IMG/VR virus record: IMGVR_UViG_3300025429_000009
Location: 28,999-92,998 of that record
Length of the DNA: 64,000 bases
Source: a virus
Taxonomy: Duplodnaviria; Caudoviricetes
Direction: 5' to 3' (one strand)
Positions 40,088 through 59,129 of the stretch are shown piece by piece. The first letter of the stretch is position 1. Each line of letters opens with the position of its first letter. Position numbers and translations under genes: made by a program. The notes under the pieces are model-generated. The model worked only from the letters and a program-made list of their open reading frames with translations. It was not told the DNA's origin and made no database searches.

Positions 40088-40959
40088 TGAGACCTAGAGA
40101 AGACGAAATCAGAAGAGAGATGCAGTTCCACAGCGATCAAGCTGATAACTTCAAGAAGAACATTAGGTCTAGTATCCCTGATTACGATCCTAATGCTGTC
40201 AACCAAAGTATGGATAGAGCAACAAAGCTTAAGCGCAACGAGTCTGCTGCTCGATCTAAGGTGCCACAGTTGTTTGGTTTGCTAAAAAAGAACGGTGCTT
40301 CCTTTCTGCGTTTTGCTGGTAACTTCACGGCCATCCCATTCAGTAGAGAAGCAAAAAGAGGTAGAGCTTTCCCGAATGCTCCGTTGACGTATGCTGCTTT
40401 GATTAGAAACTTTGATCCGTTAACAAAACTATCTAGCATCCATCTTGATAGCAAGAAGGATGTCAATGGTAATACCATTGGTGGTTGTTTGGTGTCCGAT
40501 GACGGAGGCATGACTGAGCACAGGTTCTTTACCAACAATGGCAAGATTGAAGACTATAAGCCACAAAAGATAGAAAAACTTGATATCTGCACCAACCCAC
40601 AGTGCTATGACTGCGTTGATTGCTTGGAACACCAAGATGCTTTGCACAACGCATTGAGCAATATCTTTCCAGAGAAATCAGACCCAGATGGTCACACTCG
40701 TGGATACCACATTAAGAACCTTATTTCTACGTTGAATAGTTGGGCATCGCACCACGACTCATGTGGCAACGACATGTCAATGATCAACGGTGGTTTTTCT
40801 TGTGATGATATTAACTTTAAAGAATGTGCTGAAAAACACCAACTTTTTGCTGGCCAGCTGCGTTCAATTGCGCGTGACATCGAGCACGCATTTACACAAG
40901 ATGGTGTCGGTAAGCACTTTGACCCAATCAACGGCGACGATCAGGAAGAAGGATACTAA
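40087..40959 (+). CDS. Cys/His-rich hypothetical protein
   Basis: 290 aa, TAATG coupling. Confidence 0.7.
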   Translation: MRPREDEIRREMQFHSDQADNFKKNIRSSIPDYDPNAVNQSMDRATKLKRNESAARSKVPQLFGLLKKNGASFLRFAGNFTAIPFSREAKRGRAFPNAPLTYAALIRNFDPLTKLSSIHLDSKKDVNGNTIGGCLVSDDGGMTEHRFFTNNGKIEDYKPQKIEKLDICTNPQCYDCVDCLEHQDALHNALSNIFPEKSDPDGHTRGYHIKNLISTLNSWASHHDSCGNDMSMINGGFSCDDINFKECAEKHQLFAGQLRSIARDIEHAFTQDGVGKHFDPINGDDQEEGY

Positions 40960-43900
40960 TGAAGATTAGCGAAATTTTTAAGAGAAACAACGTTAAAGAA
41001 GCTGACAATCTTTATACTAATCCAGTACCTGGGGTTACACCAGACGTACGACCTTCAATAAACCCAGGTGAGCAAAAAGAGCTTCTAAACAAAGATAACG
41101 CAATGAGAACGCTGCAGGAACAGTTCAATGTGTTCCCAGCGCCAGAAGGTCAGGCATTTCAAACGGTCCAAGAAAGTTTGCTTGGTGGTCGTTTTAAAAC
41201 GACTGAAGGCGTTATAACACCTAAGACCGAAGGTGGCATGAAGTATGATCGTTCGCCAGAAGACATATTTACCCCAGAAGAATTGGGGAGCTCAATGACT
41301 GCTTGCAACTGTGTAGAAGAAATGCCAGGTTCTATCTCACCTGAAGGTTTTAGAGATCTTAAAGAATGGGTATCTCGTGGGCCTGACTTCAGGGGGCCGT
41401 TTGCTACGCAAGAAGAATACGAAAAAGCAATAAAAGCACCTCGCGATGCATTCATTAAAGACATTCCTAGAAGACGTGCAGAGCACATTAAGTACCACCA
41501 GGACAGAGGGCTCCCCATTCCTCCGTTCCCCTCAGACGATGAGCTAATCGAAAAGTACGATAGTTTACCTTCTCCTGAACAAACCATGCACAGAGAAGTA
41601 GTTAAAAAATTTCTTGGTGCTCTTGATTCTCCACACCTCCCTGAGAGTAACTTAATAATTAATGAGTTTACACGCTCAAGCAAAAATAGTAGATTAGAAA
41701 AAGAAAACCAAGTTAATACTTGGCACCACTTGATTGGTCACATGGTCGCTGGCGGCATGAAGCCAGAAGATATTGGCATGTCTCCTGAGCTCTTCGAGAT
41801 GGCTCGTCATTCTATTAATTTTTTGCGTGAACACCACGCAAGAGGACAGCAAGAGCAAAGCGAAATTCAAAGAACGAATGCACTCCTTACTGGTCAAGAA
41901 AAAGAAGAGGAGTACCGAGAGAATCAGCTCGAGTCCCCCGCTGGATGTCCTACTTGTGAATCTTATCGTAACCATTTTAATGATGGCATTGTAAAGCTCC
42001 AAAACAAAATTCAAAAAAGAATGCTTAGCGGTGGCTCTACGTCGTCACCAGCTTATGCTACTGAGACTGCTGCTGAGCTTGCTCACCACGTTCATGAATT
42101 GTATCGCGATAATGTTCAAGGAAGCGGCCCATTGTCAGATGAATCTGGTGGGGAAGGTTCTTTCGTAAGACAAGCTTTGTTTGAAGCACACGGCAAAGAC
42201 ATTGAAGCCCTTCACGGTATTCTCGGTCAGTGGGATAGACACCGTGATATTCAGCACCCATCAGGAGCATTTTCCTGGGCAGGAAGATCACAGCCTGTTT
42301 CGTTTGAATACAAAAAGCCTGAAAGAAAAGAAAAGCTTCTTGATATTCCTGACCTCGATGTAGATACAGAAGAAGAACCAGAAGAGATTGAACGCGACCC
42401 TGAGATCGAGAGCGTATACGACAGAGTCATTGGTGTGCATGGTGGTTGGGATCTTAGACCACGTCAAGATATCCGCACTACTGAACAAGGTCGTATCAAC
42501 TTTACTGACGAACAGGGTAGAGAAATATCTCCACAAGAGATCATTGATTCCGGTGAAGTAAAGATTACTGGTGGCCCAAGAGAACTTGAACCAAACGCTG
42601 TAATCCGCCACCCAGGATTTGACTCAGGTGAGCGCCTTGTAACGGATGCCAGACCAGTCAACGAGACCAAGACTGTGCAGCTTGAGGGAAGAAACGTTGA
42701 AGGTATCGTCGCGCCTGGCGGTGAACCTCTTAGAAACAGAACTTTTATCAAAACTCAACCTAACCGTGTCGATCGTGTTTGGTCATATGATCCAAAGGAA
42801 GACCCACGTAATTACGAGTTTTTCCAACAGCCAGCAGCAGAAGGCGAACGTCCAGAAATTCTTCCTAGAAACAAGAACTTCATGGAGACTAAGTGTATTT
42901 TCAAGGATTGCAACGACCCTTACAACTGTGATGGTGAGCACGAGTACACATGGGAAAAGCCTGTACAAACTGAAGAAGCTAGACGCGAAGAGCAAAGCGT
43001 TAGATCTACTCAAATCGTTTCAAAAGAACCAACACGCACAATTACACTCTCACCCGAAGATCATTCGCCAGACTGGGAACCTTTTATCTCTAAAGAAGAA
43101 TGGCAAAAAACTGTCAATGAAGAAGGAAGACTTGAGCCTGGCCGTACACTAGAAAGATTTTCACGTCCACAACGTGCTGTTTACCCATGGGGCAAAAAAC
43201 CATTTAGACAGCTGACCCCCGAACAGCAGGAACAGTTTTTTGATTTAACTCAAAAAAATGAAAAAGAACTTCAAGCTTGGGAAAAGATTAATCAATTTAT
43301 AGATGAAAAGAATGCACCTATTCTTGAAGAACGAGAAGAAATTAAAAAAGATTTTGACGATAGAACACAAGCCAGAGGCGCACGCATCCGTGAACTGTCA
43401 GGCACGACAGAAACTAAGCAGTTTGTTACTCGTGGCAACTTCTTGCGTACTCGTTGCTCAGAGTGTGGACGTGGACCAGAACAAGGTCACAGTGGTTGGC
43501 ACCGTGACCCTGATAGAACGTTATACCAGATCCCACGTGAGCATGCATTTATTTTCCAACGTGCTGGTGTTCAACCAGACATTGCTCAATGGCACGAATA
43601 CCTTGACGCACAGAGAGCATACGATTCACAGACTACTCACGTAGAAGACCGCCCTAAGACTGTTACAGAAACCGTCGAGCACGGTGTTGGTGGACTCAGA
43701 ACTCCGTGGAAAGATTATCCTATCGATCCTTTAGATAGAGACATTAAAGCAATAAAATCAGAGGGATACAAGAAATGGTATGACTCCTTGTCTCCTGTGG
43801 AAAAGAGCATCCACGACGACGAGACTAAGGGATACCACGTAAGACGCCGTGAATTCTCAGAAGCTTTGGAGAGAGCTTACCCAACCGTTGCTTCAAACGC

Positions 43901-44636
43901 AACAATTGACACAGAGGTAGCTAGAGCTAACCTGGCAGACCAGATAACTTTGATGGATCGTTGGGAAAAGAACTGGCACCGTAAGTACTCTACTGAAGTA
44001 ACTCGGCACGTACTTGATGATGATGGTAACTATAAAGAAATAAAAAAGTTGGTGCCAAACGGTCGTAGGTATTTGGAAGTTCCTAAAGAGTTCCAACCTC
44101 TCGAGTCAGAACCTATTGACAGAAAGGTTAGGTCCTTTTACAGACAGGAACTTCCAATTAGGACAACGCTTACAAGAACCACTACTACTCCGAAACTTAA
44201 GCGTGTTCCTAAACGTTCACGCATCAAACCTCCTAGTGCCACTATGAAGCGCAAGGCTACCGAGGCATACTACGCTTCGCTCCACGCAGCCCTTGACAAG
44301 GTTTATGGCACTGATCTCTCAAGAGGAAAACAATACAGAATAATGAGAGAAGAATCATCAAACATTGCTCAACGTCTGAGAGAAGTAAACCAAAACAGCA
44401 TTAGGAACCTCGTTAGATCTAACAAGAAAGACACAACCATGGCAAAATTTACTTTTAATTCAAGAAACCACAAAGAAAATAATGATGCTAATAACAGTGT
44501 CTTTTCTGCTATAATTGGTGCAAAGAACAAGTCTTGCGAAACCTGCGGTAAGAAGTGTGCAGACAAGCAAGAGTGTGACCAGAACGTACAAGATCGTCGT
44601 CGCCAGCAGGCAGCTGACTCAATGTACAACGACTAA
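40959..44636 (+). CDS. Large charged hypothetical protein (candidate internal virion protein)
   Basis: 1225 aa, E/R/P-rich with several CxxC/His clusters; no recognisable family. Confidence 0.75.
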   Translation: MKISEIFKRNNVKEADNLYTNPVPGVTPDVRPSINPGEQKELLNKDNAMRTLQEQFNVFPAPEGQAFQTVQESLLGGRFKTTEGVITPKTEGGMKYDRSPEDIFTPEELGSSMTACNCVEEMPGSISPEGFRDLKEWVSRGPDFRGPFATQEEYEKAIKAPRDAFIKDIPRRRAEHIKYHQDRGLPIPPFPSDDELIEKYDSLPSPEQTMHREVVKKFLGALDSPHLPESNLIINEFTRSSKNSRLEKENQVNTWHHLIGHMVAGGMKPEDIGMSPELFEMARHSINFLREHHARGQQEQSEIQRTNALLTGQEKEEEYRENQLESPAGCPTCESYRNHFNDGIVKLQNKIQKRMLSGGSTSSPAYATETAAELAHHVHELYRDNVQGSGPLSDESGGEGSFVRQALFEAHGKDIEALHGILGQWDRHRDIQHPSGAFSWAGRSQPVSFEYKKPERKEKLLDIPDLDVDTEEEPEEIERDPEIESVYDRVIGVHGGWDLRPRQDIRTTEQGRINFTDEQGREISPQEIIDSGEVKITGGPRELEPNAVIRHPGFDSGERLVTDARPVNETKTVQLEGRNVEGIVAPGGEPLRNRTFIKTQPNRVDRVWSYDPKEDPRNYEFFQQPAAEGERPEILPRNKNFMETKCIFKDCNDPYNCDGEHEYTWEKPVQTEEARREEQSVRSTQIVSKEPTRTITLSPEDHSPDWEPFISKEEWQKTVNEEGRLEPGRTLERFSRPQRAVYPWGKKPFRQLTPEQQEQFFDLTQKNEKELQAWEKINQFIDEKNAPILEEREEIKKDFDDRTQARGARIRELSGTTETKQFVTRGNFLRTRCSECGRGPEQGHSGWHRDPDRTLYQIPREHAFIFQRAGVQPDIAQWHEYLDAQRAYDSQTTHVEDRPKTVTETVEHGVGGLRTPWKDYPIDPLDRDIKAIKSEGYKKWYDSLSPVEKSIHDDETKGYHVRRREFSEALERAYPTVASNATIDTEVARANLADQITLMDRWEKNWHRKYSTEVTRHVLDDDGNYKEIKKLVPNGRRYLEVPKEFQPLESEPIDRKVRSFYRQELPIRTTLTRTTTTPKLKRVPKRSRIKPPSATMKRKATEAYYASLHAALDKVYGTDLSRGKQYRIMREESSNIAQRLREVNQNSIRNLVRSNKKDTTMAKFTFNSRNHKENNDANNSVFSAIIGAKNKSCETCGKKCADKQECDQNVQDRRRQQAADSMYND

Positions 44637-44647
44637 GAAAGAAGACA

Positions 44648-45145
44648 ATGACTACAGACGCAAACGACCTGCCCGGTATTAGACCAGAGGATGTAAAGGT
44701 TACGCCTGAACAACAGGCGCAGATCAACGCATACCTTGCCGAGCAAAAGCGTGAAGAAGAAGAGCTTGGTAAGGAACAGCCTATCGAGCTTATGGAATCA
44801 GAGTTGATGGATGTATGGCGTCTCTTGCAGGAGCTGCAGTACAAGTACGGCAACCGTCCCGGTACCTTTGCTAATCTCACGTCTCTTCGCAATGAGGCTG
44901 ACGAGAAGTTCCACGCTCTTGGATTCCAAGTCGTTGTTGACTGGGTTATGCCTGGTCTGATGCAGCTTAACGGTCAAGCATCACCAGAGCCTCCCACCAT
45001 CACTATCGTTGGTCGTGTCGATGGATCAGAGTACAACCCTGAACAGAACCGTTACGAGACTGGTGCCGGTGTGGCAGACGATTACTACAACGCTAAGCGC
45101 AAGTCGCTTGGCATGAGCAACAAGCTCATTCTCCCTGGTCAATAG
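44648..45145 (+). CDS. Hypothetical protein
   Basis: 165 aa with codon usage of a highly expressed gene. Confidence 0.75.
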   Translation: MTTDANDLPGIRPEDVKVTPEQQAQINAYLAEQKREEEELGKEQPIELMESELMDVWRLLQELQYKYGNRPGTFANLTSLRNEADEKFHALGFQVVVDWVMPGLMQLNGQASPEPPTITIVGRVDGSEYNPEQNRYETGAGVADDYYNAKRKSLGMSNKLILPGQ

Positions 45146-45153
45146 AGGTAATT

Positions 45154-46422
45154 ATGCGTTGGATCAAGTTCTCTTTCAGAAAAAATGTTGTTACAGCTGC
45201 TGACGAGACCTCTGACGTCCATCCGCTAATTAAAGCTATTGATGACGGTCATGAAGTAACGATGATCTATCGTGGTAACAACACACACCCCGATGAAAGA
45301 ATAGAACCACGCACTGTTATCCCTACACGTGTTGAAGGCGACCATGTTGTTGCATTTGACATTGCTAAGAATGCATGGAGAAAGTTCTTCCCTGGCCAAC
45401 GACCAGGACCAAGCGGTATGCAAGGTGTTGAAAAGATAGTTAGCACTGCTCCTGCAAGCATCGCACGTGAAGATCTTCCACCAGAAGAAGAGAAGCCTGC
45501 AAAGACTTGGAAGAGACCTGCTCCAGCTCCTGCTCCAGCGGCACCTTCTATTCAGAAGTCTGAACCAGGCCCGCCTGTTTGGTTGAACGATGATGCACGT
45601 CCATGGGAAACACTACCCGGCTCAGTACAAAACTTTAGAAGCGTTGAGCCAACAGAGGATGAGTACAAAGAACTGCAGGCATTAGATATTGATCCTGCAA
45701 CGTTTGACCGTGCCACGGTAAAGCGCCTGCGCAACATGGGTGTCAGCCACCTCGAGCTAAAGGATGCTCTTAGCAACCAGGTTAAGATTCCTCTTGAAGA
45801 TTATGAGACTGCCAGAATCAACAACCCTGATAACCACCTGCAAGCAAAGCAAGAGGCTGAAAGATACCAAACTAATTATTATCAAACACTTATTCAAGAA
45901 AACAATCAGGACATGAGCAAGCCTGAGCTCTCACGCTATGCCGGTAGGCCATTCTTGTCAGATGAAAAGCACGACAGTTTGGTAGAGGACTTGTTCGGTC
46001 ACCACCTTACGCTAAAGAACCTTCCTACTGAGATGTTTGGTTCAATTAATCCTCAATCGTTTACAAGATACCAAGACCCTGATACTATCCCATGGCGTCG
46101 TCGGGCAAACGAATGGATTCTGCATGAGTGCTCAAAGCTTTCACCATCTTTAAGAGATTACTTTACTAGTTCAGATCCTGATGTGTCAGAGCCTTTCACC
46201 ACGCACTATGACACTAACGACCTGCTAAATTCGACAGAACATTCTAAGATAGTTGACACATTATTAAAGCACTATAACTTTAAGATGGTTAACTCTAGAA
46301 CGGTACGCGATCTTATCATTAACAAAAGAAAGCACAATGCGCTTATTAATATAGCAACAAGCCAGCACTTGCCATGGAGCTATTCTCAGGATCAGTACGA
46401 AAGAGAACCTAGGGAGCAATAA
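45154..46422 (+). CDS. Protein with N-terminal WYL-like domain
   Basis: AIDDGHEVTMIY...RTVIP.RV....VVAFD......RKF, followed by a Pro/Ala linker. Confidence 0.6.
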   Translation: MRWIKFSFRKNVVTAADETSDVHPLIKAIDDGHEVTMIYRGNNTHPDERIEPRTVIPTRVEGDHVVAFDIAKNAWRKFFPGQRPGPSGMQGVEKIVSTAPASIAREDLPPEEEKPAKTWKRPAPAPAPAAPSIQKSEPGPPVWLNDDARPWETLPGSVQNFRSVEPTEDEYKELQALDIDPATFDRATVKRLRNMGVSHLELKDALSNQVKIPLEDYETARINNPDNHLQAKQEAERYQTNYYQTLIQENNQDMSKPELSRYAGRPFLSDEKHDSLVEDLFGHHLTLKNLPTEMFGSINPQSFTRYQDPDTIPWRRRANEWILHECSKLSPSLRDYFTSSDPDVSEPFTTHYDTNDLLNSTEHSKIVDTLLKHYNFKMVNSRTVRDLIINKRKHNALINIATSQHLPWSYSQDQYEREPREQ

Positions 46423-47540
46423 TGTACAACTCTAGATACGCTAACCAATTATTTATTCCACCTACTGCGGATCCTTTTTCTGTTAAAGATCATTCAAAAA
46501 GAAAGTACAGCGCAGTTGAATCTCTATACGTAGGGTTTGATACTGAAACAACAGGATTGCTCAAAGACTTTGAAACGAAAAAAGATCTAGATACTTTCCC
46601 ATTGTCGTTCGGTATGTGCGTATATCGCAATGGCGTTCACAGCCCAGAAGAAGACCAGCATTTTATTATGTTACCTCCTCCGAAGGTTGACGAAAGTAAG
46701 CCTACAAAAATTTTGCTTGATTCCAATGGACGACCAATTAGATCAGAATTGTCTGACGAAGCAGAGAAAGTGCACGGGCTAACCGGTGACCTTCTTGCTG
46801 CTAGTTATCAAGGTAGAATTGTTAAAGACAAGACTGGTTCAACTCTGTTGCCTGCATACGAGCACAGCGTAGGAACTGCCAAAGCATTGAGCTTATTAGG
46901 TCAATATCAAAAACAAGGTGCAGTGTTTGTTGGCCACAACATTATTAATTTTGACTGGCCTATGATGCTTAGATCACACTTTAGAGCAACCGGTGAATTG
47001 CCACCATCAACAGCTGGTTTGAATCTGGGTAATGCTATGCGCTACTCCGCTGACACATTACAGCACGCCAAGGCTATGGGTATGGGTGTTAAGGGGTTTA
47101 GAAGAGGCGCTGGTGGTGTCCTTATCCCAGTAAGTGATTCAAAGAGACTTGAAGATCTTTGCCCACACTTTGGTATCCAGGTTGGTGGCCACGCTGCTCT
47201 TGGTGACGCTCGTTCATCGGTAGAACTCCTGCTAAAGCAAATCCAGCTGAACCAGGAGGAAAACGCAGCTAGAGGAATTAAGCTATCTAGCGTTGGTCCA
47301 TCAGGGGTTGACTACAGCATGGCTGGCCCGCACGACCCTAAAGGATGTAACTTCTGCAACCATTTAGACAAGGTAGCAGCCGGTAATATGGATGAAAACG
47401 GCAATCACTTGGATAAAGATGTAAAAAAGTCCATTGATGCTGCACGTGGTTGGCACGTTGACCCGTCATCCGCAAAGGGTACCCACCCTATGGCCCCACA
47501 ACTCGTATTAACTGCTAAGAAAAGAGAAAACAATGCGTAA
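46422..47540 (+). CDS. DEDDh 3'-5' exonuclease (DnaQ-like)
   Basis: FDTETTGL, VHGLT, VGHNIINFD, DTL, HAALGDA. Confidence 0.88.
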   Translation: MYNSRYANQLFIPPTADPFSVKDHSKRKYSAVESLYVGFDTETTGLLKDFETKKDLDTFPLSFGMCVYRNGVHSPEEDQHFIMLPPPKVDESKPTKILLDSNGRPIRSELSDEAEKVHGLTGDLLAASYQGRIVKDKTGSTLLPAYEHSVGTAKALSLLGQYQKQGAVFVGHNIINFDWPMMLRSHFRATGELPPSTAGLNLGNAMRYSADTLQHAKAMGMGVKGFRRGAGGVLIPVSDSKRLEDLCPHFGIQVGGHAALGDARSSVELLLKQIQLNQEENAARGIKLSSVGPSGVDYSMAGPHDPKGCNFCNHLDKVAAGNMDENGNHLDKDVKKSIDAARGWHVDPSSAKGTHPMAPQLVLTAKKRENNA

Positions 47541-47913
47541 AGTATCCAGAGCTGACGAAACGTATGATTTTAACTACCATACAGCTGCTGCAGATAGATG
47601 CGTCACACCTGGTTGTTACAACAAGCCAGAGGGTAACGAACGCCACTGCACTGATTGCGTAGAGAAGGTTAAGAACCCTACTTCTCGTCCATACGACACT
47701 AAGGGTACTACTTCTTCTGCTAAGACAGCTGGTGCATGGCCAAGCGAGACGGATCACAACGCTCACATCTCCAGCATGGAAGAACTCGCAGAGCACCACT
47801 CAAAGGGCGTTGCTTGGCACCACGAGCAAGGTGACACGATTCAAGCTGGTCGCCACGCTGCTGCTCTCGCTGCTCTTACTGGCGCTATCGAAGCTTGCAA
47901 GATTGCAAGATAA
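47533..47913 (+). CDS. Hypothetical protein (Cys/His-rich)
   Basis: C...GC...CTDC; His-rich C-terminus. Confidence 0.65.
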   Translation: MRKVSRADETYDFNYHTAAADRCVTPGCYNKPEGNERHCTDCVEKVKNPTSRPYDTKGTTSSAKTAGAWPSETDHNAHISSMEELAEHHSKGVAWHHEQGDTIQAGRHAAALAALTGAIEACKIAR

Positions 47914-47915
47914 CC

Positions 47916-48092
47916 ATGGACTTCAACACTCGTTACGCTAAAGAAAAAGAGTTCTGGGATAAAGAAGACCCAGACCATGGCGATCACGACAAGCTAACAT
48001 CTGAACAAAAAGCAAAAGCAAAGGCTCGCGCTAAGGCACATGGCCGAAAGTATCCTAACCTTGTGGACAACGCCTGGGCCTCTAAACAATAG
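47916..48092 (+). CDS. Small basic protein with RYA leader
   Basis: MDFNTRYAKEKE...KAKAKARAKAHGRKYPNLVDNAWA. Confidence 0.75.
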   Translation: MDFNTRYAKEKEFWDKEDPDHGDHDKLTSEQKAKAKARAKAHGRKYPNLVDNAWASKQ

Positions 48093-48100
48093 GAGATAAT

Positions 48101-48658
48101 ATGAATTGGAACCTGCGCTACGCAAAGGACAAAGAAGAAAAGGGTGGCGGTAAGTTTAAGCCGCCAGCATCGGTGCAGTCTGCTGCTAAGCACGCATTGA
48201 AGCTGATTGAAGAGGGTAAGGCCGGTGATGGTTTTACTAGCGTAGGTCGCCACCGTGCTCACCAACTTGCTGCTGGTGAGATGGTACCACTCAGTGACAT
48301 CAAGCGCATGCACTCATACTTCTCACGTCACGGCGTAGATAAGAAGGGTAAGGACTGGGACAACGACAGCCCCGGTAAGGTTGCCTGGCTTGCATGGGGT
48401 GGAGACGCTGGTAAATCATGGGCAGCTAGCATTGTAAAGAAGCATGGTGGTGGTGACAGCAAGAAGAAAGAGTCTAGCTACCGTTACGCAGAAGCAGAAG
48501 AGAGTCACGACGATTACTGCCGTAACCCTGATGAGCACTGCTCAACGTGTGCACGCGCAGGTTATTGTGAGTGTGGCGTATGTGGCAGAGGTGGTGTTAA
48601 TAATGGCTTACAAGACATGGAAAGACTACGTCAAGAAGAAAAACGTTACAATGACTAG
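48101..48658 (+). CDS. Head-associated phage domain protein with RYA leader
   Basis: MNWNLRYA; PP..V...A..AL...GFT.VG..RA.QLA...RM.SYFSRH...VAWLAWGGDAG..WA, a domain seen in phage head-gene regions. Confidence 0.7.
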   Translation: MNWNLRYAKDKEEKGGGKFKPPASVQSAAKHALKLIEEGKAGDGFTSVGRHRAHQLAAGEMVPLSDIKRMHSYFSRHGVDKKGKDWDNDSPGKVAWLAWGGDAGKSWAASIVKKHGGGDSKKKESSYRYAEAEESHDDYCRNPDEHCSTCARAGYCECGVCGRGGVNNGLQDMERLRQEEKRYND

Positions 48659-48890
48659 CTTTAACGAGCGTTATGCTAAAGAAAAGAAAGACCACTACCA
48701 ATACATCAAGGAACGTGATGGTAAGTGGGTCATTCTACAGAAGGGTACCGGTAAGGTGCTCTCTCACCACGACACGCGTGAGAAGGCTATTGAAGCATTC
48801 AAGGCTATGATGGCACACAAGCACGGTAATGTTAGCTTAGATCCAAACGACTGGCGCAACGAGTACTTTAATCTAGACGCAGATTGGTAA
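48651..48890 (+). CDS. Small protein with RYA leader
   Basis: MTSFNERYAKEKK...GKWVI..K.TGKVLS.HDTREKA. Confidence 0.7.
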   Translation: MTSFNERYAKEKKDHYQYIKERDGKWVILQKGTGKVLSHHDTREKAIEAFKAMMAHKHGNVSLDPNDWRNEYFNLDADW

Positions 48891-48893
48891 ACT

Positions 48894-49235
48894 ATGGATT
48901 GGCAACGCCGTTACGCAATGAATGAAGATGAGTTCACTAAAGCCATGGGCTATTATTGCAACGTCGGCAACCACTATGTCAATAAAGAACCTGTATGTGA
49001 TACAGAGGGATGTAAGTGGATAGGTTACCCAGAAGCAGAATTGCTTCTTGGTGATGTAGGCGGTAACATAGAAGGCATTGGGAATAACGATCACTCTCCA
49101 CTATGTCAGTTCGCTTGTAATGATCACAGATACATTAAGTGCGAAAGATGTGGTGAGGTTACGAACCCAACATACTTTAGAGGTACTAAACTAAAAAAAT
49201 GCAGAGACTGTCGTCGTGCATTGGGCGAAAGGTAA
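48894..49235 (+). CDS. Cys-rich protein with RYA leader
   Basis: MDWQRRYA; CERC...CRDC. Confidence 0.65.
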   Translation: MDWQRRYAMNEDEFTKAMGYYCNVGNHYVNKEPVCDTEGCKWIGYPEAELLLGDVGGNIEGIGNNDHSPLCQFACNDHRYIKCERCGEVTNPTYFRGTKLKKCRDCRRALGER

Positions 49236-49241
49236 TAAACC

Positions 49242-51239
49242 TTGCCTAAGATTACTAAAAATAGTAATGCTAATATCCTTAAGGGGCAGCAGGACTTCTT
49301 TGAGATTGCAAAGAAATCTCTCAAAGAGAATCCTGAGCTGCCCGATATTGTCACGTTCGCAGAACACCCAGACTTCTTAGGTCGTCGCTTGTATCCACGG
49401 CAGAAGACATTGCTTCGTCTTATCTGCCTGGAAACAGAGCACATGACAGACTACGACTACGAAGTTATCGATGAGTGGACAAAGAACTTTGATAGAAATA
49501 GCAATGCTATTGGTGTATCTCCAGACATCCTGCAACGTGTTGAGTATCTAAAAGCTAACGGTTACAAGCACTTCCGCGAAGTAATTAACATCACCGGTCG
49601 TCGTGGTGGTAAGGGCCACATCGGCGGTATCATTGGTGCATATATTAACTGGGGACTTATCATGCTTGATGATCCACAGTGGTACTACGGTATCGACAAG
49701 TCTAAGGACATGTATATGTTCTGTGTGGCCACGAACATCCAGCAGGCCAAGCAGTTCCAGTTTGCTGACTTAGCTAACACGATCATTGACGCCCCGTGCT
49801 TCCAACCATATATTGCTGACGCTAAAGAACACTTCCTTGCACTACGTACACCTGCTGACGTGCGCCGCATCGCCGCATTCGAAGCCAGAGGTGTACGCCC
49901 TAGCCGTTTGATAGCTAGTGTTAGAAACATGGCAGTAACTAGTAACTCTAAGGCATCCCGTGGTGCTGCCGCTTTCGGCGTTATGTTTGACGAGTTCGCA
50001 CACATGTTGGCCGGTACCGGTGGTGCCAGAACATCTGAAGAAGTATATAACGCTATTACTCCTGCGCTTGACCAGTTTGCAAAGGACGGGTTTATCTACG
50101 TGCCTACGTCACCGTTTACCAAGGTTGGTAAGGCATTCAATCTCTACGAGTCTGCGCTAGAGAATAATGAGGATGGCACCCCTGCATATCCTAATATGAT
50201 GATGGCACAGCTACCATCGTGGGGGCCTTATGAGGACTGGGATAACCCACGTGCCACTGGTGGTTTTAACTTCCGTGCTGCCCCACAGACATACGATGAA
50301 GCTATGAAGCTGCTGGAGAGACGTGAACCAGATGCATTTAGAGTTGAGCGTCTCAGTCAATGGGCTGAAGTTACTGACGCTTACCTCAACCCCAAGATGG
50401 TTGAGCGTATGTTTGAACCATTCACTGATGCAAATGGTGAACTGCGTGAGCTGGAAGAACAAACCGAGGGTAGATTTAGTATCGTTTACCAGGGGCACTG
50501 TGACCCCTCTAAGTCTGGTGCTAACACGGCAGCAATGATTGGTCACGTAGAAAAGATATCTGACCCTGAAGACGGTGAAGAATGGTACCACGTCATCATT
50601 GACTGGATCAAGGTGTGGAACCCTGATAACTATGATGAAGGCCAGATTGACTATGAAGAGATCGAAGAAGAGCTGGTAGATACTCTCTGTAAGTTTAGAA
50701 CAACTAAGGTATTTTCGTTTGACCAGTACGGTGCGTTCGTTACTCTGCCACGTTTGAAGAAGCGTTTGTTAATGGTGAACCCACCGCACAAGGTAAAGAT
50801 CCGCGAAGAGAAGTTCACCAGAGAGAGCAACAACAGAAGAGCTGAGCGTTTCAAGTCGGCGCTCGGTATGAATTGGGTGCACTCGTACCGTGACGTGTAC
50901 GGCCCGGACGGAACTAGCTTGTTGGAACAAGAACTTAAGTTCTTGCAGGAAGTAAATGGCAAGGTAGATAAGCAGAAGTTTGGTCCGATCAGAACGTCAG
51001 ACGTTTCTGACTGCCTTATGGTTATTGTAGACCAGTTGCTAGAAGATAACTTTATTAAGCTAGAAATGCGCGAGCGTTTGAGTAACACAGAACTATACCC
51101 AGGCGCACAGGGTGGATACCACACGCAAAAGGGTGGCAACGAACCTGTTACTGCTCGAGACCGTCTGAGAGTATTTGGTGCTCAACGTTCACAAAGAGAT
51201 TACGGGGGTATGTCCCGTGGAAAACCAGGTAGACGATGA
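49242..51239 (+). CDS. terL: Terminase large subunit
   Basis: LYPRQ, Walker A GRRGGKG, ATNIQQA, FDEFAH, TSP; nuclease HCDPS, FDQY, SDVSD; TTG start. Confidence 0.92.
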   Translation: MPKITKNSNANILKGQQDFFEIAKKSLKENPELPDIVTFAEHPDFLGRRLYPRQKTLLRLICLETEHMTDYDYEVIDEWTKNFDRNSNAIGVSPDILQRVEYLKANGYKHFREVINITGRRGGKGHIGGIIGAYINWGLIMLDDPQWYYGIDKSKDMYMFCVATNIQQAKQFQFADLANTIIDAPCFQPYIADAKEHFLALRTPADVRRIAAFEARGVRPSRLIASVRNMAVTSNSKASRGAAAFGVMFDEFAHMLAGTGGARTSEEVYNAITPALDQFAKDGFIYVPTSPFTKVGKAFNLYESALENNEDGTPAYPNMMMAQLPSWGPYEDWDNPRATGGFNFRAAPQTYDEAMKLLERREPDAFRVERLSQWAEVTDAYLNPKMVERMFEPFTDANGELRELEEQTEGRFSIVYQGHCDPSKSGANTAAMIGHVEKISDPEDGEEWYHVIIDWIKVWNPDNYDEGQIDYEEIEEELVDTLCKFRTTKVFSFDQYGAFVTLPRLKKRLLMVNPPHKVKIREEKFTRESNNRRAERFKSALGMNWVHSYRDVYGPDGTSLLEQELKFLQEVNGKVDKQKFGPIRTSDVSDCLMVIVDQLLEDNFIKLEMRERLSNTELYPGAQGGYHTQKGGNEPVTARDRLRVFGAQRSQRDYGGMSRGKPGRR

Positions 51240-52177
51240 ACTGGTCTATTAGATACGCTATTGATCAACAGAATGAATCAACCAGAGAGCCTGTGAATAA
51301 TACATTATCAGAACAAGATAAGTCTCAATTGCTTGAGATGGGTACAGACTTAAACAGTAAAGTTCATAAGTTTACTTCAACTAAGGCAACTGCTAGACCT
51401 AAACCCAATGCTTCTGATGAAGAATGGGCAAACCATTTAATGCCTGGTGGATTCCATAACTATATAAACCCAAATAAAGACTCTATTACTAGTGACAATC
51501 ATGAACTAGCATTACAACAGAGAGCAAAATATAGTATTTTGTTGAATGGAACATACGACCCTCAACATGGTTGGAGTAACCCTCAGCAAAATACAGCTGG
51601 TGCAAAGGTTTTATCTAGAATAGCTCGTTCTCAAACAACAGATGAAGTTTATGATACTCAACATAGTGATGAAGATAATGGTCCATTAGAAGATAGAGCC
51701 TTGCATTTTCTAACCAATAATGCTCCTAAAGAGAATGTCCCCGAACTACACAGAGGAATTTCTTTTAGAGGGTCAAAAGATGACTTGTTAAAAAAATTTG
51801 CAGTTGGTAGTGAATTTACTGACCAGCATAGGTCATATAGTGCCGATAAAGAATACACTAAATCTTGGGCTATTTACGATCCTATGACATCGGGAGCACC
51901 AGACTCAGTCCGCTCAGGTAATATACCAGTAGTGTTTCACACCCCAGCTAAAACACAGGCCGTACAAGTATCAACATTGCCTAGTGCAGTTCATGAACAT
52001 TTTAATCATTCAATTGCTCAAGAATATATTCATTCTCCCGGTAAATTTAGAGTAAAAAAACATGAAATTGATAATGATGGTGTTCATCATATACATATTG
52101 AACAAACTCAAGTTGGTGGAGTAAGACAAGAAATGCCTCAAGAACAGCAAAAAATTTATGATGTAGGAAGGGCATAA
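51236..52177 (+). CDS. ADP-ribosyltransferase (R-S-E clade, Alt/ModA/VIP2-like) with RYA leader
   Basis: LHRGI, VG..F, RSYSA, QEYI..PGKFRVK. Confidence 0.75.
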   Translation: MNWSIRYAIDQQNESTREPVNNTLSEQDKSQLLEMGTDLNSKVHKFTSTKATARPKPNASDEEWANHLMPGGFHNYINPNKDSITSDNHELALQQRAKYSILLNGTYDPQHGWSNPQQNTAGAKVLSRIARSQTTDEVYDTQHSDEDNGPLEDRALHFLTNNAPKENVPELHRGISFRGSKDDLLKKFAVGSEFTDQHRSYSADKEYTKSWAIYDPMTSGAPDSVRSGNIPVVFHTPAKTQAVQVSTLPSAVHEHFNHSIAQEYIHSPGKFRVKKHEIDNDGVHHIHIEQTQVGGVRQEMPQEQQKIYDVGRA

Positions 52178-53211
52178 TGAAAAAAATGTTAGAGAAAATG
52201 AAGAATCAATGGGCACCAATAGTGACTGCTGATAACTTTTACGATAAAAAGATAGCGTCGTCTAATATAAATTGGTCTATTAGATACTCAGCAGATAGAA
52301 GAAGCTTGCAAGAGATTAGCGAAGCACTGCCCGAAGACTGGCAGATAGTTGCGCACGGTAGAGCCAGCAATACACACTGGTTTACCAGAGATTTTGAAAA
52401 CATTATTCAAGATCGCATTATGGATGGCGTTATTCTAAAAGACGTTAGCCCTATCACTAGACCTGACGTAGTTAAGTTATATAATCACAAGACGGGTAAC
52501 AGCGCGTTGGTGTACGCCCACCCGCAAAGAATACACACAGATAATTTTGTAAACACTGCGTGGAGCGAAGATTATTGGAACTTCAAACACCACAAAGATG
52601 TAATTAATGATATGTTAACTACATTAGATCGACCAGAGCTGAAAGCTGGTAAGACACCACATGTACTTAACCTAGTTAGAAACACACATCCAGACGCAAT
52701 AACGAATTACTCAGCGAATAGCGGTGTATTAGCATGGACAATGAACGATCAATCACCAGATGTTTTTATCCCAGCGCCATCAAAGTTTACTAGTGAAGCA
52801 ATAGATAGAAGAAGAAAAAATACTTATGATCTATCAAGCAATAAGAGCCACTTTGTCAACAGAGACACAGTAATTAATCACCTCATTCACGAGATTGGCC
52901 ACAAGCACATGGTTAAGAATGATTTAGCTATGCAATTCTTAAGACTACAACGTGTTTTTGCTACAAAAATTAAAGGTTATACACCAACTAGCAATTCTGA
53001 ACATAACGTTGCAATGTATAATAAAATAACAGCGCCAAGTGCATACGCTGAAAAAAATTTCGCTGAGAACTACGCAGAAAGTTATGCGCAGTGGCACGGC
53101 CCAGAACCTAAGCCAACACCATTCGTATTGTACGCAGGTAAAAGACTAGGCTGGACTATCACGCCTAAGATTAAAGATTACGCCAGTAAAATTGGATTTA
53201 ATTTAGATTAA
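52177..53211 (+). CDS. Zincin metallopeptidase (lethal-factor/MPTase-like)
   Basis: HEIGH...SAYA..NFAENYAESY; internal NWSIRYS leader. Confidence 0.78.
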   Translation: MKKMLEKMKNQWAPIVTADNFYDKKIASSNINWSIRYSADRRSLQEISEALPEDWQIVAHGRASNTHWFTRDFENIIQDRIMDGVILKDVSPITRPDVVKLYNHKTGNSALVYAHPQRIHTDNFVNTAWSEDYWNFKHHKDVINDMLTTLDRPELKAGKTPHVLNLVRNTHPDAITNYSANSGVLAWTMNDQSPDVFIPAPSKFTSEAIDRRRKNTYDLSSNKSHFVNRDTVINHLIHEIGHKHMVKNDLAMQFLRLQRVFATKIKGYTPTSNSEHNVAMYNKITAPSAYAEKNFAENYAESYAQWHGPEPKPTPFVLYAGKRLGWTITPKIKDYASKIGFNLD

Positions 53212-58709: not shown

Positions 58710-59129
58710 TTACCAGATACGTCCCCTAGGATGCATCTTCATATAATTTGTTACTGTTTCTGGTTGCTCCGGGATTGGTGCACCAGGGTAATTGCTCAGC
58801 TGTTCAAGCACCCATTTTTCTGCGTTGAACTCATTGTTAGAATCATACATGATACTAGCAAGACCTAACAAGTTATCAAGAAATGATTTTGCAACCCATG
58901 ATGCCTTGAACTCACGCTTCAATAAAACTGTGTTAGCAACCTTAGAGCCGTTTACAGCTTTGCGTACCAACAGCACAGCGTTCTTATTGACAAGCCCGCC
59001 ATACCGTCCGTACTCAATAGTAAATGACAAGTTAATGTTAGCACACCATCTTGGATTTACCTTAGCTGTTGCTACTTGATTGTTAATTGAATCATCATAG
59101 CGTGTTGACCAATTCACCATCCTTGACAT
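58710..59129 (-). CDS. Hypothetical protein (paralog of 57217-57843)
   Basis: GGAGG RBS; AKSFL / WVLEQL. Confidence 0.7.
   Translation of the reverse strand: MSRMVNWSTRYDDSINNQVATAKVNPRWCANINLSFTIEYGRYGGLVNKNAVLLVRKAVNGSKVANTVLLKREFKASWVAKSFLDNLLGLASIMYDSNNEFNAEKWVLEQLSNYPGAPIPEQPETVTNYMKMHPRGRIW

Follow-up and report, generated by a model that had tools for sequence, protein, structure and literature searches.

Short terminal peptides direct unrelated cargo into HK97-fold shells, as do the N-terminal packaging signals of the phage P1 Dar proteins and the cargo-loading peptides of encapsulins. The diverse internal proteins of phage T4 share only a capsid-targeting sequence (CTS), which loads them onto the scaffolding core (PMC3012670). 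In other phages, ADP-ribosyltransferase (ART), MPTase and ParB effectors found in late-gene context are predicted to be packaged in the capsid (PMC5512222). Here we describe a putative counterpart in an uncultured phage, G000, known only from metagenomic sequence, as the 92,998-bp IMG/VR viral record IMGVR_UViG_3300025429_000009. We analysed the 64,000 nt at positions 28999-92998 of that record (the window), in which a short peptide ending in R-Y-A recurs at the start of otherwise unrelated proteins encoded around the large terminase gene, terL. This tag is shared by 37 or more protein families, and it most likely addresses them to a common partner, probably the phage head. Coordinates are those of the window unless marked genome; L-numbers are related loci or stretches from IMG/VR, and P-numbers are database proteins.

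The tag resembles the T4 CTS in logic and differs from it in sequence. In both cases a leader of about ten residues is the sole common feature of diverse, fast-changing accessory proteins (IPI, IPII, IPIII and Alt in T4), among them an ART (PMC3012670). In both, the leader is separable from its cargo. The T4 genes are made late, and strand and operon context suggests the same for the genes here. The two leaders share no sequence similarity, however, and the host of G000 appears to be an actinobacterium, its TerL being closest to those of Rhodococcus and Mycobacterium myophages. Unlike the CTS, the motif also occurs inside fusion proteins, and it precedes at least 37 cargo families, compared with a handful in T4. 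The T4 leader is cut at a prohead-protease consensus shared with scaffold and capsid proteins, whereas the motif described here is absent from head modules, and its packaging and cleavage are putative.

The repertoire recalls a second group of systems, the polyvalent proteins and the effectors fused to MuF or portal proteins (Iyer et al. 2017, PMC5512222). Those systems also combine ART, zincin/MPTase and ParB-like nuclease domains, lie in a late-gene, terminase-portal context and are predicted to be delivered with the DNA; ART clusters related to the one here are fused to Phage_Mu_F or portal. Polyvalent proteins carry 2-15 domains per polypeptide, whereas the tagged genes here are mostly separate and single-domain, with only two-domain fusions. 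No MuF domain was found beside the tagged genes. The P1 Dar and encapsulin signals differ from the tag in sequence and position, and binding of the tag to a shell is putative.

The tag is concentrated at gene starts in the terminase region of G000. An initial annotation had listed six N-terminal copies around a motif-free TerL; all six are present (Table 1), and TerL contains none. One of them, the MYNSRYA leader of an exonuclease, is degenerate, scoring below 9 bits on a position-specific scoring matrix (PSSM) against 19-33 for the other copies. A second copy proposed within the open reading frame (ORF) at 48101 is likewise there but weak, and its L004 orthologue has not kept it. The copy placed near the N-terminus of a zincin-like protein exists as NWSIRYS. 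Orthologues of this protein in L002 and L018 begin exactly at the motif (M/V-NWS[IT]RYA), and the G000 protein may therefore carry a 31-aa N-terminal extension or use another start.

These matches stand far above background. A six-frame PSSM scan returned seven matches of 18.9-33 bits, all on the plus strand and at or near gene starts; the next best scored 10.6 bits. Beyond the six listed N-terminal copies, a strong one, MSWSERYA, lies outside the window at genome 18329, among tail and baseplate genes, in a gene with a GTG start one base past the preceding stop and a WhiB-like C-terminus. As the initial annotation had anticipated, N-termini are enriched over shuffled controls: 2000 residue shuffles of the 111-protein set gave a mean of 0.03 N-terminal matches (maximum 1), against 5 observed for the crude gene set and 7 once gene starts had been corrected. 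A weak motif-like N-terminus in the minus-strand block, MSRMVNWSTRYDD, is probably a chance match, its L027 orthologue having no motif.

The tag is common to a clade of uncultured freshwater actinobacterial phages. We pooled relatives whose terL is at least about 70% identical, and in 23 IMG/VR loci of TerL relatives the motif stood on many ORFs beside terL. The pooled loci held about 119 distinct copies, 91 of them N-terminal, with the logo M78 N68 W77/F14 N67(/S) x R87 Y91 A83 x E38/D21 K/R (n=91); 65% of copies continue as A-x-E/D. The 77 complete tagged proteins fall into 37 cargo families without similarity beyond the tag. They are small (median 113 aa, range 41-473), and many contain CxxC pairs. 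Scans of whole records from this clade found 3-10 W-type copies in each.

An exact DNA pattern for M-N-W-N-x-R-Y-A had 54 matches in 30 IMG/VR viral stretches, often with 2-4 tandem genes each. In 596 Gb of bacterial and archaeal genomes the same pattern gave 88 single, taxonomically scattered matches, which by our own estimate is about the chance level, and Rhodococcus phage E3 had a single isolated match. With no clustered matches in these cellular genomes, mimicry of a host motif is unsupported. This control, the shuffles and the PSSM scan together rule out a chance origin. When a 32-residue leader alignment was compared as a profile with 1.84 billion representatives, only 8 matches reached E <= 0.001, mostly two-copy proteins; a lone 8-residue motif is too short for profile searching. 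A full-text literature search for the peptide strings returned nothing relevant. One of the 8 profile matches, the 3169-aa database protein P0003, is built of thirteen repeats in tandem, most of them spaced by about 171 aa, and every repeat includes SLTFSWSSRYATACYAND; we rejected it as a member of the system, the likeness of this folded repeat to the motif core being coincidental.

Codon usage indicates that the constraint on the leader is on the peptide, not the DNA. Its information content follows codon periodicity, with positions 1-2 fixed and the third drifting (AAC/AAT, TAC/TAT, GCN). Arginine is written as AGA 29 times and as CGN 47 times, serine uses both TCN and AGY, and W interchanges with F. 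The free third positions and the use of both arginine codon families thus point to selection on the peptide. The 21 nt upstream hold almost no information, and codon identity among leaders on unrelated cargo is 0.449 against 0.459 expected from pooled usage. Of 112 pairs of leaders that have the same peptide but precede unrelated cargo, 5 also match fully in DNA, where 0.8 would be expected, a small excess that fits a leader being copied now and then onto new cargo.

The tag looks like a separable module that stands in front of each cargo unit, and a free N-terminus seems not to be needed. The initial annotation had proposed a portable N-terminal module on unrelated proteins, and peptide-level selection, the 37 cargo families and recurrence at fusion junctions all bear this out. 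In G000 the phrog_2859 and DUF2188 modules are two genes with an 8-nt overlap. In L005 and L020 they are joined in frame as one ORF with the motif kept between them, and in L019 DUF2188 is also fused in frame behind the phrog_2859 domain. L019 has the motif, as ASFNERYASE, at a second kind of junction, between an MRKVSRA N-terminal part and the phrog_2859 domain. The database fusion proteins P0002, P0005 and P0007 even retain the methionine inside the fusion. A VGxSG[IV]DY...CxFC module forms the Cys-rich C-terminus of the tagged G000 exonuclease, where it has no leader of its own, and is a separate gene with its own MDWNLRYA leader in L001, L004 and L005. Because the fused G000 module has lost its leader, one tag per polypeptide may suffice.

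Structure predictions place the tag on flexible segments. An AF2 model of the protein encoded at 48101 has predicted local distance difference test (pLDDT) scores below 50 over residues 1-15, which form the leader, and over 119-175, a linker that contains the internal copy, with the domain at 17-118 confident. The leader has weak helical propensity, and a helix would place W3 and Y7 on the same face. We rejected the idea that the tag belongs to a conserved fold, such as the first strand of a zinc ribbon, since the model shows it as flexible and it stands before DUF2188, phrog_2859, ART, amidase and cupin domains alike.

Tagged genes are organised with the terminase genes. The initial annotation had placed them around terL, and they do lie on its strand, with stop and start codons that overlap those of terL. 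Spacings from the candidate small terminase gene, terS, through the zincin-like gene are 8, -1, -8, 2, 8, -8, 3, 6, -4 and -1 nt, and we saw no excess of promoters or terminators over this interval. We therefore predict that the tagged and terminase genes share a transcript and that their translation is partly coupled. In six whole records, all 38 W-type matches lay on the terL strand, compared with 0-1 for a control pattern. The shared strand and the stop/start overlaps with terS and terL suggest late expression.

Within this arrangement the gene content is highly variable. The terS-terL gap, which holds 4.1 kb of variable genes in G000, is one variable island and the stretch that follows terL is another; both contain different genes in each relative. 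Nearly all genes after terL are tagged in G000, L004, L018, L019 and L022. Further tagged islands occur at the start of the plus-strand arm, beyond the end of the G000 record (L027, L031, L038, L052), and after a 287-aa tail-region gene (at genome 18329 in G000; also in L033 and L039).

Several tagged proteins resemble effectors. The 51236 protein matched nothing in Pfam, NCBIfam or PDB-profile searches. It lies near Atlas PF03496 clusters that are often fused to Phage_Mu_F or portal, and it conserves a catalytic Arg, a Ser-x-Ser region and a Glu in R-S-E order; R173, S200 and E263 do not vary in four homologues that are 30-35% identical and all have the leader. Its top Foldseek matches are R-S-E ARTs (E ~2e-4), obtained from a poor AF2 model (mean pLDDT 45). 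The 52177 protein has HEIGH at residues 238-242 and no Pfam or PDB sequence match. The ART and zincin calls of the initial annotation thus hold as leads, through Atlas neighbours, conserved residues and HEIGH, with no Pfam match for either. Other tagged proteins carry ParB-like domains (phrog_2579, 3e-12; phrog_1033, 2.5e-5), an amidase (1e-70; 473 aa), a cupin, a helix-turn-helix/Cys-rich protein or a WhiB-like protein, and many are zinc-ribbon mini-proteins.

Some of these cargo families are linked to head assembly elsewhere. The phrog_2859 domain, which found no PDB match in a fold search, heads a 661-aa coiled-coil protein in Vibrio phage 1.122.A, where the gene is flanked by a MuF-like gene and the capsid gene. 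The ORFs that contain the domain in Actinomycetia phage DSL-LC01, Halogranum virus HGTV-1 and Nodularia phages bear the annotations capsid maturation protease, prohead protease or minor head protein. Several cargo families, the ART among them, belong to types that are found covalently joined to head-assembly proteins in other phages.

A capsid address resembling the T4 CTS is the best reading of the tag, and we hold it tentatively. We propose that [M]-N/S/D-W/F-N/S-x-R-Y-A-x-E/D serves as a linear address that is portable between proteins and occupies a flexible segment before the cargo domain. It would bind one common partner through its aromatic W...Y pair (i, i+4) and its Arg, and the likeliest partner would be a component inside the head during assembly. 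Accessory enzymes made late, as well as small zinc-ribbon proteins, would in this way enter the capsid and be passed on with the DNA when the virion infects a new cell; the tag may be trimmed after loading. The mechanism would work like the T4 CTS and would have evolved independently. We favour it because the short modular tag, late context, hypervariable loci and effector-like cargo match T4 logic, and because a host-directed enzyme made with the terminase would be most useful if it travelled in the virion. In its fullest form, held slightly more cautiously still, the proposal is that one lineage of freshwater actinophages, unrelated to T4, independently evolved addressing of cargo to the capsid. 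By means of a helical tag of 8-11 residues (N-W-N-x-R-Y-A-x-E), dozens of effectors that can replace one another (ART, zincin, ParB-like nucleases and zinc-ribbon mini-proteins) would be loaded into the head for injection, with the polyvalent-protein arsenal held as separate tagged cassettes round the terminase genes.

Several results weigh against head loading. The initial annotation had suggested looking for the motif in scaffold and capsid propeptides; it is absent from the scaffold, protease, portal and capsid proteins of G000 and 80 relatives, and its absence from all head modules rules it out as a general head-protease site. That annotation had also proposed a test for enrichment near head genes; the tagged genes lie at a distance from these, in variable islands found beside terL, where the late arm begins and within the baseplate cluster. 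The head protease matches phrog_18299 ("head maturation protease") and has no Pfam, NCBIfam or PDB match, and its assignment to a family failed. The major capsid protein (MCP) contains a conserved PR[TV]A[KR]K past its variable N-terminus, a low-information pattern, and A-x-E/D or R-x-A as a cut site is likewise a low-information lead only. A search for a receptor that co-varies between tagged phages and tag-free sisters found none. The complete 124.7-kb genome behind L014 and the L015 record contain no tag despite a 92% identical capsid protein. The replication-type exonuclease, the 473-aa amidase and the cupin are not obvious injected effectors, and orthologues of the exonuclease begin with MFNAKYA, MFNSRQA or no leader at all.

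These same results lend the strongest competing account part of its appeal. The tag could be a docking or recognition motif for a partner other than the capsid, and would then set the localisation, stability or activity of accessory proteins in the infected cell. The partner could be a phage chaperone or a host hub such as RNA polymerase, the nucleoid or a Clp-type unfoldase; with the unfoldase, the tag would act as a degron or timer. Short linear motifs have the same traits of being short, flexible and selected as peptides, heterogeneous cargo with metabolic-looking enzymes needs no capsid, and both the motif-free head proteins and the close relatives that keep the capsid without the tag would be accommodated. 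We nevertheless consider this account unlikely. The tag occurs only on the late strand, coupled to terL, and the ART, zincin, ParB-like and scaffold-associated cargo suits packaged effectors. Copies inside fusions speak against a signal that requires a free N-terminus, and with no clustering of the motif in any host genome, host mimicry is unsupported.

Proteolytic processing is another alternative, and we regard it as improbable. Here the motif would mainly be a site cut by the zincin or the head protease, fused and split genes would yield the same products, and N-terminal copies would be the retained P' side. Polyvalent phage proteins have been proposed to be self-processed by MPTase domains (PMC5512222), and the motif is indeed kept at two-domain junctions, in some cases with its Met (P0002, P0005 and P0007; L005 and L020), while the A-x-E/D continuation in 65% of copies would suit a cleavage site. 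A processing site is useless, however, at the extreme N-terminus of a single-domain protein, which is where 91 of the roughly 119 distinct copies stand; a zincin occurs in only a few of the motif-bearing phages among these loci, the head proteins have no such site, and one fusion has lost its junction motif. Least credible, and largely refuted, is a nucleic-acid element with the peptide as by-product, whether a linker through which cassettes recombine or a signal that initiates or couples translation. The genes do lie in hypervariable islands with overlapping stop and start codons, and a few same-peptide leaders share identical DNA. The codon analysis nevertheless led us to reject a DNA repeat, recombination linker or initiation signal: third positions are nearly free, Arg and Ser each draw on codon families with different first bases, F can replace W, codon identity is at expectation and the upstream region is almost free of information.

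If head loading is correct, T4-style cargo addressing arose more than once. Metagenomes could then be read directly, by a sequence rule, for the arsenal that abundant but uncultured phages of lakes inject, and a short portable peptide would be available for trying protein loading into actinophage heads. The ARTs would also gain another account from the one in the literature, where they are read as anti-grazer toxins; a freshwater-phage preprint treats them as anti-predator toxins and mentions no leader (bioRxiv 10.1101/670067). Even if the partner is not the capsid, the tag would mark an undescribed interaction shared by 37 or more families in phages of a very abundant freshwater bacterial group.

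Table 1. Features of the terminase region of G000 and one weak match, in window coordinates.
Coordinates	Strand	Feature	Motif copy (position)	Support or comparison
44648..45145	+	Candidate small terminase, 165 aa; left border of variable island		49-95% identity in 18 relatives
46422..47540	+	DEDDh-type exonuclease, Cys-rich C-terminal module	Degenerate leader MYNSRYA (46422-46442)	Pfam RNase_T 3e-6; phrog_192 1.5e-19
47533..47913	+	Untagged MRKVSRA... family gene		Fused upstream of phrog_2859 domain in L019
47916..48092	+	58-aa protein (phrog_34011)	Leader MDFNTRYA (47916-47939)	Orthologue leaders MSWLERYA, MNWNTRYS, MNFNERYA
48101..48658	+	phrog_2859-domain protein	Leader MNWNLRYA (48101-48124); weak SSYRYA in flexible linker (48473-48490)	phrog_2859 3.6e-31
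48651..48890	+	DUF2188 protein; overlaps previous gene by 8 nt	Leader MTSFNERYA (48651-48677)	Pfam DUF2188 5e-6
48894..49235	+	Cys-rich 113-aa protein	Leader MDWQRRYA (48894-48917)	L019 orthologue, 97% identity
49242..51239	+	Large terminase, untagged, 665 aa		phrog_2 2e-17
51236..52177	+	ART-like protein; start overlaps terL stop (ATGA)	Leader MNWSIRYA (51236-51259)	Nearest Atlas clusters PF03496, score 0.94
52177..53211	+	HExxH zincin-like protein (HEIGH, 52888-52902)	Internal NWSIRYS (52270-52290)	Atlas neighbours ATLF/Peptidase_M90-like, 0.94-0.95
58710..59129	-	Weak motif-like N-terminus in early minus-strand block; probable chance match	MSRMVNWSTRYDD	9.6 bits on PSSM against at least 18.9 for true copies

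The wider genome follows a modular plan. The plus strand encodes portal, head protease, cement and major capsid proteins at genome 2-10 kb, then tail and baseplate proteins, then a replication block (helicase, DnaB, primase, polymerase and a UvsX-like protein). The tagged region comes after this block, and a minus-strand block with a WhiB-like gene ends the record. A nucleotide search of cultured phages found no match to G000. By terL, its closest cultured relatives are Rhodococcus phages such as E3 and Gordonia and Mycobacterium phages, at about 40% identity, so the label actinophage is reasonable for this uncultured phage.

The left border of the terminase island is set by the 165-aa gene, which is probably terS, judged from its position. 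It lies directly upstream of terL in the motif-poor L014 and L015 and one 275-aa ORF away in L012; family searches with it returned no match. Directly upstream of it, at 40959-44636, is a 1225-aa orphan protein with several CxxC pairs and one motif-like NWHRKYS (9.5 bits); its orthologues are 842-1022 aa long and very divergent. Further along the island, the family of the Cys-rich 48894 protein is distinct from that of a 115-aa L005 protein starting MNWSERYA.

Two other shared termini occur in the island. The N-terminus MRKVSRA[DES]E belongs to one orthologous family (47533-47913 in G000; also in L001, L004, L009, L016, L019 and L022). At the other end of proteins, a conserved C-terminal tail, ...KHGNV..D.[SN]DWRN[DE]Y..LD[AS]DW*, is found at 48840-48887 and at the C-termini of the L005, L019 and L020 ORFs. 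It ends whatever protein sits just upstream of a 48894-type gene or of terL, and its W-x-x-x-Y spacing resembles that of the leader.

The head module contains a fast-evolving gene of its own. A 248-aa protein with two zinc-ribbon motifs is encoded at genome 6039-6785 (L024), between the head protease and a scaffold-like gene. The gene was not detected in the tag-free sister L203. L211 does have it, and no motif was seen in the L211 record, which is 15% complete. The protein is a possible adaptor candidate whose correlation with the tag is not clean.

Capsid and terminase proteins diverge to different degrees across these phages. The MCP is 88-99% identical across the clade and 92% identical in a tag-free sister, with TerL dropping to 65% (L146-L225 vs L001-L023), a contrast that points to mosaic evolution or to very different constraints on the two genes. 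TerL also varies in length, with 911-912 aa in L018 (659-3394) and L022 (10001-12739) vs 665 aa in G000. In those two proteins the alignment splits after about residue 292, at an in-frame insertion of about 247 aa that is possibly an intein.

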